64,000 nucleotides of DNA from Candidatus Omnitrophota bacterium (GTDB taxonomy: Bacteria; Omnitrophota; Gorgyraeia; JAFGHF01), in the NCBI GenBank assembly GCA_043805735.1, contig JAZDHS010000020.1:9750-73749 (forward strand), given 5' to 3'. Every line of letters begins with the position of its first letter. Position 1 is the first letter of the stretch. Made by a program: the position numbers. This document shows, one piece after another, positions 12,001 to 15,000 of the stretch.

Positions 12001-15000
12001 GTTGGAAATTACCGATGTGAATAACGCCTATCTATCACGCGGGGAACTCTCTTTCGATATCCTCGACGGTTGGTGGACCGATGCCGGGACGTTTGAATCG
12101 CTCTTACGGGCCAATAACCTGGTGGCGGAGAAAATCGGCCGAGGCCGGAAATGAACCCCGCCCTTCCTAAACAAGCATTGCGTAACAAGCAAAAGTACAG
12201 CAGAAAGTTTTAGGCAATGCAGATAAAATTAAGCAAAAGCAATATTTATATTGGCAATGCCGGGAAAGGAAGGGCGGGGTGAAGAAAAGAATCCTGGTGA
12301 CCGGTGGAGCCGGATTTACCCCGCCCCTCCAAAAATGATGGCTCAGGGTGGTTAATTAAATATTTTGGTTTATATTAAAGCGATGGCGCAATGAAAAAGA
12401 AAATACTGGTTACAGGAGGGGCGGGGTTTATCGGCTCCAATTTTATTCGTTATCTCTTCAGCGCTTACCCTAAGCTTTCACTGGTTAACCTGGATAAGCT
12501 GACCTATGCCGGGCGGGGCGCTAACCTGGGCGATCTCGCCGCTTCGCCGCGTTACCGTTTTGTCAAAGGCGATATCTGCGATCAGCAGGCCGTTAGCCAG
12601 GCGATGCGCGGTTGCGAGATAGTGATTAATTTTGCCGCCGAAAGCCATGTTGACCGCTCGATAGTTGACCCGGCACAATTCGTGCGCACCAATGTCTTCG
12701 GCGCGCATGTCCTGTTAGAACAGGCCCGCAAAAACAAAATTTCCCTTTTCTGCCAGATTAGCACCGATGAGGTCTACGGAAGCCGCATGAGTGGCTCGTT
12801 TAAAGAGACGGACCGGCTTGAACCCTCCAGTCCCTATTCAGCGACAAAAGCCGCCGCCGATCACCTGGCGCTGTCCTATTTTATTACCTATAAGCTTCCG
12901 GTGGTCATTGTTCGCCCAACCAATAATTTTGGACCTTATCAGTTTCCCGAGAAAGTGATCCCGCTTTTTGTGACCAATATATTAAAGGATAAAAAGGTAC
13001 CCCTCTATGGCGATGGCCTCAATGTCCGCGACTGGCTCTACGTCCAGGACTGTTGTCGGGCAATCGACATCGTCATTAACCGCGGCCGGCCCGGAGAGAT
13101 CTATAACATCGCTGGAAAAAATGAAATTAAGAATATCGAGTTAACCCGGCTAATTCTCAAGATGATGGATAAGCCCAAAAACTACATTTCCTTTGTCGCG
13201 GACCGTCCGGGACATGACCGGCGCTATTCTTTAGATCCGGCAAAACTCGCCAGGCTCGGTTGGCGTAGCCGTGTTGCGTTTACCCGGGCGCTTGGTGAAA
13301 CTATTCAATGGTATGTAAACAATCAGAAATGGTGGAAAAGGTTAAAAGGTTAAAGGAGCAGGACCAATGAGCGTGCAGGAGTTGCTGGATAAAATTAAAC
13401 AGAAGAAAGCGAAAGTGGGGATTATCGGCTTAGGCTATGTGGGTTTACCTTTAGCGGTTACCTTTGCCAAGGGTGGTTTTGACACCTACGGCTTTGATAT
13501 TAATCAATCAAGAGTCAACCGGGTGAAAAAAGGGGAATCGTATATTTTGGATGTGCCGCAGGCGCAGTTACGCCAAGTCTTGGCTAAAAAGAAACTCACC
13601 GTAAGCGCTGATTTCGCGGCGATAAAAAAGGTGGATGCGGTGATTATTTGCGTGCCTACGCCTTTAAAAGAGCGCAAAGAACCCGATGTTTCCTATATAG
13701 TTTCCGCCGTAGATAACATTAAAAAATACATGAAGAAAGGCCAATTGGTAGTGCTGGAAAGCACCACCTACCCTGGCACTACTGAGGAAATTATTTTACC
13801 GGCGCTGGAATCGCGCGGATTTAAAGAAGGCAAAGATTTTTATCTGGCCTTTTCTCCGGAGCGGGTTGACCCTTCCAATGCCAAATATAAAACGGAGAAT
13901 ACGCCCAAGGTTATCGGCGGAGTTTCCGCGCAGTCCGGAGCCGTAGCCCGCGCGCTCTACGCCGGCGTGATTCAAAAAGTAGTCGTGGCTTCCTCGGCCA
14001 AAGTTGCGGAGATGTCTAAGCTTCTGGAAAATACCTTCCGGATCGTCAATATCGCGCTGGTCAATGAGCTTTTACTGATGTGCGAGAAACTTGGTGTTGA
14101 TGTCTGGGAAGTGATCGATGTGGCCAAGACCAAGCCCTACGGCTTTATGCCTTTTTATCCCGGGCCCGGCGTCGGCGGGCACTGCATCCCAGTGGATCCG
14201 ATTTATCTTTCCTGGAAGGCCCGCCACTACGGCTTTGTAGCCCGTTTTATTGAATTAGCTTCGGCGGTAAACTCGCAAATGCCGCACTATGTCGTGGAGC
14301 GGATAACCAAGGCCCTCAACGTCCAGAAGAAACCGCTAAAGGGGAGTAAAATTCTCATTGTCGGCGTGGCCTATAAAAAGGATGTCAAGGATTTACGCGA
14401 ATCGCCGGCTTTGGATATTATCACCATCCTGCAGAATGCCGGGGCCTGCGTTTCTTATTACGACCCGCTGCTGCCTTATTTAAAGATTGACCACATTGAT
14501 TTAAAAAGCGTGCCCTTTAGTGCGAAAAGCTTTAGTGATAAGGATTGCGTGGTGATCGTCACTGACCACAGCGTTGTCGACTATGAGTTTATTCTTACTC
14601 ATGCGTCTTTAATCCTGGATACGCGCAATGTGATGAAAGATTTAAAAGGCAGAAAAGAAAAGGTAGTCCGGCTATGAGCCCCGCCCTTCCTAACAGCCGC
14701 ATTGCAAAGGGCAAAGAAGTATGGATACAAAAAAATATGCTAGAGATAAAAGCAAAAGTTGAAATTATTGTTGGCAACGCCAGGAAAGGAAGGGCGGGGT
14801 GAGCGTATATTTAGTTACCGGAGGAGCCGGTTTTATCGGCTCCAATATCGTCGAGGCCCTGGTCAAACGCGGCGAGCAGGTCAGGGTTTTGGACAATTTT
14901 GTCTCTGGGAAAAGAGAAAACCTCACCGCGCACCTTAAACAAATCGAGCTGACTGAAGGAGATATTAGAGACGTCGCCCTTTTGCGTAAGGTGGCAAAAG

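Follow-up and report, generated by a model that had tools for sequence, protein, structure and literature searches.

Correia elements (CREE) are marked by 26-bp terminal inverted repeats of the Correia consensus, a TA duplication and an integration host factor site, and REPINs (REP doublets mobilised by a RAYT) make no target duplication, each of their arms being a short palindromic sequence that bears a conserved 5′ tetranucleotide. In operons, overlapping stop and start codons (ATGA, TAATG) form the classic geometry of termination-reinitiation. REP2 in Neisseria and IR in Borrelia are repeats which donate a promoter, an ATG and a site for ribosome binding, and REP2 has neither terminal inverted repeats nor a target duplication (PMC3184786). 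In-frame repeats tolerated in genes are known, among them the Rickettsia palindromic elements (RPE) (PMC10969869, PMC3184786), and the Chunjie MITE (miniature inverted-repeat transposable element) of Geobacter uraniireducens, as outlined in a review, measures 178–235 bp, is intergenic and lies in an operon without destroying it (Chen et al. 2008, cited in PMC10969869). Here, a stretch of 64,000 nt from a Candidatus Omnitrophota bacterium (the window; assembly GCA_043805735.1, contig JAZDHS010000020.1, positions 9,750 to 73,749 of the forward strand) was analyzed, in which two short-chain dehydrogenase/reductase (SDR) genes, an RmlB-like gene at 12391 and a UXS-like gene at 15855, begin with nearly identical 5′ ends. 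These ends are very probably two copies, B1 and B2, of a small, non-autonomous MITE-like repeat dispersed in Candidatus Omnitrophota, belonging to a family that preserves the translation of its host genes and that is apparently undescribed.

Results

The shared 5′ block and its boundaries

The near-identity of the two 5′ ends, reported in an earlier note on this DNA, is real: the 32-nt sequence ATACTGGTTACAGGAGGGGCGGGGTTTATCGG is present exactly twice, at 12403–12434 and 15867–15898, with 0 matches expected from shuffled sequence. In a codon alignment of both genes scored in 15-codon bins, nucleotide identity was 93% over codons 1–15 and 24–56% in the later bins, which is the step after about codon 15 that the note had proposed to look for, and the proteins are as distantly related as it had stated (31% overall amino-acid identity). 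Moreover, among identical residues within the first 16 codons, 11 of 14 share their codon in this pair as compared to 1–4 of 8–11 in most other SDR pairs, and no comparable 5′ block was detected in the other SDR paralogue pairs (14799, 30290, 46445). While the first ~45 coding nucleotides are indeed alike, the similarity is not confined to them: the real block spans ~145 nt (12300–12443 and 15766–15907, 83% identity) and takes in the non-coding leader, an upstream inverted-repeat arm and ACCCCGCCCCTCC. Its 3′ third is 100% identical over 32 nt and its leader only ~70%.

Each gene is preceded by a displaced N-terminal fragment, as had been recognized earlier, reading GTG AAG AAA AGA ATC CTG GTG ACC GGT GGA GCC GGA TTT (12279–12317) ahead of the RmlB-like gene and ATG..GTG TTA ATT ACC GGC GGG GCC GGC TTT (15733–15783) ahead of the UXS-like gene; both continue directly into ACCCCGCCCCTCC. 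That these fragments are the original N-termini is confirmed by the UXS orthologue of GCA_016939375.1, whose start MSRKKRVLITGGAGF matches the fossil MSTPKKRRVLITGGAGF.

The block is bounded by inverted repeats. Counting GGAGGGGCGGGGT together with its reverse complement, the window has eight occurrences (1.5 expected), all within 12155–15891 and arranged as four inverted pairs, which bound B1, B2 and two units of a second form, A1 and A2 (Table 1); no further hairpin-bounded unit was found in the 64-kb window. The arms are perfect over 12–13 nt (12 nt in both B copies; CCCCGCCCTTCC and GGAAGGGCGGGG in the A copies), CCCTTCC pairing with GGAAGGG in A and CCCCTCC with GGAGGGG in B, and direct repeats of 4 nt border every unit (TTTA in B1 and B2, TGAA in A1, TGAG in A2). 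The RmlB-like gene carries two insertions (A1 and B1), the GalE-like gene at 14799 carries A2 and the UXS-like gene B2, and the present start codons, and in B also the first 12 codons, are supplied by the repeat.

Insertion of B took place between the Phe and Ile codons of TGGAGF-IGS. The N-terminus was replaced instead of the gene being destroyed because the right repeat reads Gly-Gly-Ala-Gly in frame (GGA GGG GCG GGG, codons 9–12) and the unit carries an ATG followed by MKK(K/R)ILVT (ATG AAA AAG AAA ATA CTG GTT ACA in B1, two substitutions in B2), which together fully replace the first strand and the beginning of the glycine motif. The original first 13–17 codons persist upstream of B as a short open reading frame (ORF). 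The B copies carry the C variant of the arm, since the T variant would read GGA AGG and place Arg at the second glycine of the SDR. An AT-rich leader precedes the internal ATG of B1 at 12391, and B2 holds a promoter-like TTTATA-17-TATAAT (15817–15845) before its internal ATG at 15855, on which the TAA stop of the fossil ORF overlaps (TAATG). In A1, the last G of the element and the flanking TG form a GTG at 12279, with AGGAAGG as Shine-Dalgarno sequence, and in A2 the old ATG at 14674 overlaps the stop codon of a UDP-glucose dehydrogenase-family gene that lies upstream, the new GTG being at 14799. In silico excision of B1 with one TTTA joins 12317 to 12431 (...GGA TTT + ATC GGC TCC) with the frame intact, and excision of A1 with one TGAA yields ATGAAGAAAAGA, restoring an ATG start which overlaps the TGA of the RmlA-like gene.

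The earlier note had offered two explanations for the shared ends. Of the first, that 5′ modules were swapped between genes, the common leader and first codons of two diverged genes hold good; the mechanism, conversion or recombination between paralogues which homogenised the SDR 5′ ends only, is largely refuted as primary cause and is quite unlikely. The sharp identity step after codon 15 is what it predicts, and the 100% stretch of 32 nt beside a leader of ~70% may stem from conversion over a short tract once B1 and B2 had been inserted. However, the block includes a non-coding leader and an upstream arm and is delimited by perfect 12-nt inverted repeats and TTTA repeats, conversion cannot create displaced in-frame N-termini, and the same unit recurs in SDR genes of other genomes and, from one terminal inverted repeat to the other, before a non-SDR gene, with uninterrupted orthologous sites that lack the block (see below).

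The second explanation, that RNA pairing constrains these codons, stood as far as the arms are complementary and predicted to pair, but the identity can be explained without it. In its full form, a cis-regulatory hairpin would have evolved in place, its pairing with the GGAG codons controlling translation or processing and selection fixing the codons. Consistent with it, the arms are perfectly complementary, A1 and B1 each pair left arm to right arm in both the minimum free energy (MFE) and the centroid prediction (z = -5.4 for 12145–12445), arm-arm hairpins are also predicted for A2 and B2, the C/T variant co-varies between left and right arms, and an rmlB orthologue of only 65% identity (L096; loci are cited by their numbers in our scans) has the same arrangement. 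Despite this, it leaves unexplained the co-varying 4-nt direct repeats, the dozens of near-identical copies at unrelated genes, the identical unit before a HypF-like gene and the tandem and nested copies; furthermore, the right arm begins at +25 in the coding region, beyond the usual initiation footprint, and no Rfam family matches, the whole window giving 0 hits at gathering thresholds. An origin of this kind is therefore unlikely, whereas a regulatory effect of the hairpin acquired after insertion is possible and compatible with all observations, and pairing may act on these codons as a secondary force, as judged from predicted structures. An attenuator-like pairing of the A1 right arm with the B1 left arm (16 nt, 88%) was considered and rejected, as it is not used in the predicted MFE and centroid structures.

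Two further features of this region were observed. The GGAGCC (Gly-Ala) and GGCTCC (Gly-Ser) codons flanking the insertion site are reverse-complementary (12307–12314 with 12432–12439, and likewise 14823–14829 with 14837–14843), and native TGGAGFIGS coding sequence would fold into a small hairpin whose loop holds the TTTA target, which in B1 extends the stem. Moreover, B1 contains mini-ORFs (12335–12355 and 12383–12394): an ATGA at 12335–12338 links the fossil ORF to ATG ATG GCT CAG GGT GGT TAA, and ATG GCG CAA TGA ends on the main ATG at 12391; such an arrangement might serve as a relay in several steps or have come about by chance, the sequence being AT-rich.

Empty and occupied orthologous sites

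Occupied and empty sites were contrasted between species. The closest sequenced relative, GCA_016939375.1, shows 69% and 82% amino-acid identity and keeps the UGDH-rmlC-rmlA-rmlB order; its rmlB junction (L094) is uninterrupted, reading aggATGAaaaataagatattagtgacaggcggggccggttttatcggc and ...aggATGAaaaat..ggccggttttatcggc, and its UXS orthologue (L105) lacks B and begins with MSRKKRVLITGGAGF. The UXS orthologue of CP070837.1 (L106) also lacks B, and 11 of the 12 right-arm bases agree with its native codons GGAGGGGCGGGTTTTATCGG. The rmlB orthologue of CP070837.1 (L096) carries A, a (V)-initial fossil and B at the same positions as the window. Since its A copy resembles the other A copies of its own genome and not A1 of the window, the sequence comparison points to a separate insertion in each lineage over a single inherited one.

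In GCA_016939375.1, a sister repeat family with other arms (CCCCGTTAGARCC ... GGWKCTAACGGGG) was also seen at L105:86-165 and L105:1106-1203 (JAFGHF010000024.1), in the form ATGAG-element-TGAG where the orthologues of the 14799 and 15855 genes begin; in the first of these copies no stop interrupts the frame between the old ATG and the TGA of the junction (MSPVRTLYAFGVVYQTKKSENIGGLTG, then stop).

Further B insertions and mobility of the B unit

Scanning metagenomes for B joined to TTYATYGG detected seven further B loci (L098–L104), which together with L024, L039 and L096 make ten outside the window and twelve in all. The host genes are RmlB-like, UXS-like, GalE-like and two GC-rich RmlB-like genes, each with a displaced N-terminus and TTCA or TTTA repeats. 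The decisive case for the mobility of the unit, as read from the alignments, is a B-type copy in L072, which aligns arm to arm with the rmlB-borne copies of L039, L099 and L104, the similarity ending at both arms. This copy includes ATG AAA ATT CTA ATC ACA GGA GGG GCG GGG and is flanked by TGAA/TGAA before an acylphosphatase/HypF-like gene that starts VKGAARIELSGVVQGVGFRPF; the relic it carries ahead of the HypF-like gene encodes MKILITGGAG and then stops, which supports an SDR origin of the B form.

Identical take-off and landing codons (TTT/TTT or TTC/TTC), which a stable predicted hairpin brings together, and fossils of which several still encode an intact N-terminal motif would also be expected if ribosomes left the message at the first TTT, landed on the duplicated one and skipped the element, so that the fossil still served as N-terminus. 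Programmed bypass of the T4 gene 60 type combines matched take-off and landing codons with a stop right after take-off and no alternative downstream start. Here, the take-off codon is not followed by a stop, an in-frame ATG with a conserved MKKxILVT replacement is present in the element itself, the gap of 108–111 nt is over twice the known distances (T4 gene 60, yeast mitochondrial byps), and the fossils of L039, L098–L100, L102 and L104 are frameshifted or decayed, which makes bypass very improbable. An extra base is common to fossils of two different SDR genes, GGAGCGG-A-GGTTCA, in L039, L098, L099, L100 and L104 (a T in L102); in the rmlB group it puts the fossil ORF into the frame that runs as far as the new ATG without a stop.

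Family size and dispersal

With one genome scanned per species and exact arms 75–105 nt apart required, 93 loci with 107 distinct hits were returned, ~70 of the type seen in the window. Nearly all hits of this type came from Omnitrophota metagenome-assembled genomes (MAGs) or from MAG contigs that are unclassified or differently binned and have the same architecture. The complete 1.55-Mb chromosome CP070837.1 holds 13 exact copies spread from 40 kb to 1.32 Mb, with near-exact ones at 1.42 Mb, and MAG CSMAG_1317 holds 22 exact copies. The copies measure 100–128 nt, and their only ORFs are frames of 35–44 codons with unconserved interiors. Identical 4-nt flanks were present in 63 of the 107 hits (TGAA 34, TTCA 20, TGAG 3, TTTA 3, and CTGA, TCCA and TTGA 1 each) and 3-nt TGA/TCA flanks in ten additional ones; because several flank sequences co-vary left and right, they are target duplications and not a fixed motif. 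Tandem or nested copies share one TGAA in L055 (5331–5437 and 5442–5536), L077 (476–593) and L026 (near 5154), and from their layout new copies apparently insert beside the end of an existing one.

About 34 hits (Actinomycetota, Saprospiraceae, Armatimonadota and others) were set aside as unrelated: these palindromes are longer and GC-rich, extend into the flanking sequence (ccccacCCCCGCCCCTCCCC...) and have no direct repeats around them. GC-rich palindromic repeats of ~110–120 nt (ccccacCCCCGCCCCTCCCCAAGGGGGAGGGGAGCC...), a family unrelated to the one in the window, occur in L003, L013, L042, L043, L081, L084 and others, with several copies per genome, in Saprospiraceae, Lewinellaceae, Verrucomicrobiota, Armatimonadota and Thermomicrobiales MAGs, and have the 12-nt core in common by chance or convergence.

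Repeats of 12–13 bp around 82–100 nt of AT-rich DNA, the TTTATA-17-TATAAT of B2 and the setting in a long polysaccharide gene cluster might also suggest an inverton, in which a site-specific recombinase flips the promoter between the repeats and a surface-polysaccharide locus varies in phase. In the assemblies, however, ~60 start-codon and 12 B copies (~72), from many genomes and metagenomes, are found in a single orientation, flipping would take away the start codon and the N-terminal codons, copies lie at all kinds of genes, and the direct repeats would be unexplained; this possibility is accordingly rated as extremely unlikely.

Start-codon placement and the stop-free frame

The position of start codons was analyzed in 63 copies with TGA-type flanks. 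The ORF that starts at the junction with the last G of the element and the flanking TG is long in 58 of them (median 224 aa), and the left-hand TGA closes a long upstream ORF in 24 only. The left flank reads ATGAA in 42, GTGAA in 6 and NATGA in 9 copies, and therefore the original start codon of the host gene is retained there; the 6–12 nt upstream of it are enriched in G, with a Shine-Dalgarno-like tetramer in 36 of 64 copies. Start-codon copies, of which Omnitrophota genomes hold at least 60, have the form ATGAA-element-TGAA, in which the terminal G rebuilds GTG and AGGAAGG five bases upstream is a ribosome-binding site.

Old start and duplicated TGA are in phase in 45 of 65 copies, 34 of which are stop-free throughout the element, giving products of the type MNPALP...KGRAG in AT-rich and MTPPLL...GGAG in GC-rich copies, each ending at a stop. 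Among 64 distinct copies, 37 have an open frame 0, compared to 0 and 8 in the other frames, and shuffled interiors are open in 12% overall (1–7% in AT-rich groups); when every one of the 12 subfamilies is represented by a single copy, 8 prove open where 2.1 would be expected. The interior peptides are unconserved between subfamilies; translatability and not a protein is maintained. The stop of this relay ORF overlaps the new start (G-TGA). The full arrangement is present in A2, with 42 stop-free codons from 14674 to 14802 (MSPALP...KGRAG) and the TGA at 14800–14802 overlapping the new GTG; A1 is in phase but has an internal TAG. Among the twelve B loci, the fossil ORF overlaps the new ATG in six, as TAATG in B2, ATGA in L039, L099, L104 and L101, and TGATG in L103, and it stops earlier in B1, L096, L024, L098 and L102.

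Table 1. Positions of the repeats, their flanks and the host genes in the 64-kb window
Feature	Position	Strand	Remarks
Original RmlB-like ATG	12151-12153	+	overlaps TGA stop (12152-12154) of upstream RmlA-like gene
Left TGAA of A1	12152-12155	+	empty counterpart aggATGAaaaataag in L094
Element A1, 124 nt	12156-12279	+	arms extendable to 27 nt; hairpin in MFE structure
Right TGAA of A1	12280-12283	+	direct repeat
Displaced RmlB-like N-terminus	12279-12338	+	19-codon upstream ORF; original codons 12279-12317
Element B1, 108 nt	12319-12426	+	TTTA repeats at 12315-12318 and 12427-12430
B1 arms	left 12319-12330 CCCCGCCCCTCC, right 12415-12426 GGAGGGGCGGGG	+	right arm = codons 9-12
RmlB-like dTDP-glucose 4,6-dehydratase gene	12391-13353	+	first 12 codons (12391-12426) from B1
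Element A2, 121 nt	14679-14799	+	TGAG repeats 14675-14678 and 14800-14803; on GalE-like SDR gene start
Vacant TTTA site, GalE-like paralogue	14832-14835	+	GGT TTT ATC; empty B-type site in same window
Displaced UXS-like N-terminus	15733-15855	+	40-codon upstream ORF; start overlaps end of 14799 gene
Element B2, 106 nt	15785-15890	+	arms 15785-15796, 15879-15890; TTTA 15781-15784, 15891-15894
UXS-like gene (UDP-glucuronate decarboxylase family)	15855-16790	+	first 12 codons from B2

Host genes and locus

Pfam assigned the gene at 12391 to the RmlB-like dTDP-glucose 4,6-dehydratases and that at 15855 to the UXS-like decarboxylases, and identical NCBI proteins from a Candidatus Omnitrophota MAG are annotated with the same functions (P0001, RmlB-like, which starts at ATG 12391, and P0121, UXS-like). 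Nearly all long ORFs of the window are encoded by the + strand, and their junctions are short or overlap. In the part from 7.4 to 20 kb, the genes scanned encode, among others, an LptD-like protein, two dehydrogenases of UDP-sugars, RmlA/C-like proteins, three enzymes of the SDR type and a carbamoyltransferase, so that the setting is a very long co-oriented surface-polysaccharide cluster with all four repeat copies within 12.1–15.9 kb.

Discussion

We propose that the repeats spread by transposition, with a transposase acting in trans, and that insertion would be attracted to sequences resembling the element's own end. On A-type sites, a Shine-Dalgarno sequence, spacer and (A)TGAA could offer this likeness, as they resemble GGA(A/G)GGGCGGGG-TGAA; on B-type sites, the Rossmann motif GGN GGN GCN GGN TTY A (GGNGGNGCNGGN-TTYA) could do so, as it matches all 8 fixed bases of the 12-nt repeat. 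Copies that lie in tandem or nested and have one TGAA in common (L055, L077) fit such targeting. The B form may have arisen when the arm-like GGAGGGGCGGGG of an SDR gene was used as surrogate right end, by which the leader and first codons would have been captured. Following insertion, ribosomes starting from the old Shine-Dalgarno sequence and ATG would translate the left arm and open the predicted stable arm-arm hairpin, then terminate on the overlapping stop and reinitiate, so that the host gene would keep its original translational drive; we infer this termination-reinitiation relay from sequence statistics. The complete picture of a 'translationally transparent' repeat, comprising homing to its own ends, rebuilding of start codon and ribosome-binding site, a stop-free relay and B as a portable SDR N-terminal module in a manner like exon shuffling, is a tentative one, for which we judge the chances to be slightly short of even.

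The MITE-like interpretation is carried by the anatomy, the direct repeats, the empty and occupied sites, the dispersal, the occurrence of one unit at a locus of another kind and the surplus of in-phase frames that are open. Several observations weigh against it or against parts of it. B1 lacks the relay arrangement, its fossil ORF stopping 55 nt before the new ATG. All start-codon copies have one interior orientation relative to the host gene, which random-orientation insertion of the DDE type does not predict, and openness of the frame cannot explain this uniformity because the reverse orientation is stop-free equally often. A strand-specific TGAA target that would fix the orientation was considered and discarded, as L039 (TTCA/TTCA) and L072 (TGAA/TGAA) have the same interior orientation. 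The 8-kb loci examined yielded neither a transposase nor an autonomous element bearing these ends, and for this reason the argument for mobility is a comparative one, made between species. Furthermore, copies within one genome are non-independent, which inflates the raw counts, and scans with exact arms under-sample degenerate or differently placed copies.

In small size, lack of transposase coding, terminal inverted repeats, target duplications, dispersed copies, and empty and occupied sites, the units agree with MITEs. As to a cognate autonomous insertion sequence, arm pairs 0.5–3 kb apart in the examined loci were neighbouring small elements only, and no long-range arm pairs enclosing a transposase were seen in these 8-kb loci. 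No description of the Omnitrophota repeats, or of MITEs that sit on or rebuild start codons with a relay ORF, was found in the incompletely searchable literature, and neither 'start codon' nor 'translational coupling' occurs in a 2024 review of prokaryotic MITEs; absence from such literature is no proof of novelty.

If the proposal is true, the family would clearly exemplify how a mobile repeat in bacteria can be made harmless by rebuilding a start codon and a Shine-Dalgarno sequence and by an open relay frame, and of SDR genes in which the first strand and glycine motif of the Rossmann fold would have been swapped without killing the enzyme. Gene calling and comparison in Omnitrophota have to reckon with GTG starts, with short ORFs upstream and with 5′ ends that are falsely "conserved", all made by repeats, and blocks made by repeats can pass for gene conversion or riboswitch-like leaders. 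The copies additionally offer a natural test bed for termination-reinitiation coupling and for a choice of insertion sites that follows likeness to the element's own ends.

Among the described systems, Correia elements are similar in their size of ~100–150 bp, terminal inverted repeats, short target duplication, dispersal and lack of a transposase gene, and they may carry promoter-like sequence and form transcribed hairpins. By contrast, Correia elements duplicate TA and are mostly intergenic, whereas the Omnitrophota copies sit on start codons (TGAA within ATGAA), have one frame stop-free, and also rebuild the start codon and the Shine-Dalgarno sequence; the terminal-repeat sequences are unrelated, the Omnitrophota arms being CCCCGCCC(C/T)TCC with a duplication of TGAA, TTCA or TTTA, which places the family outside CREE. 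It likewise falls outside REPINs and REP doublets, as its arms are not self-complementary and direct repeats are present. REP2, unlike the repeats described here, has not been described as displacing an existing start or N-terminus, or as being read through from the old start. The reviewed account of Chunjie, as far as it goes, likewise reports no start-codon rebuilding, relay ORF or N-terminal replacement. RPE are comparable as palindromic mobile repeats inside coding genes which keep an open frame; however, RPE are translated internal peptide insertions fused in the protein, whereas B splits the gene, so that the part after its own ATG is the new N-terminus, and the start-codon copies in Omnitrophota are separate upstream ORFs. 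Finally, the likeness to translational coupling lies in the ORF of the old start, which ends on a TGA or TAA overlapping the new GTG or ATG, and the difference lies in the upstream cistron, which here is not a gene but a sequence-unconstrained ORF on a mobile repeat.

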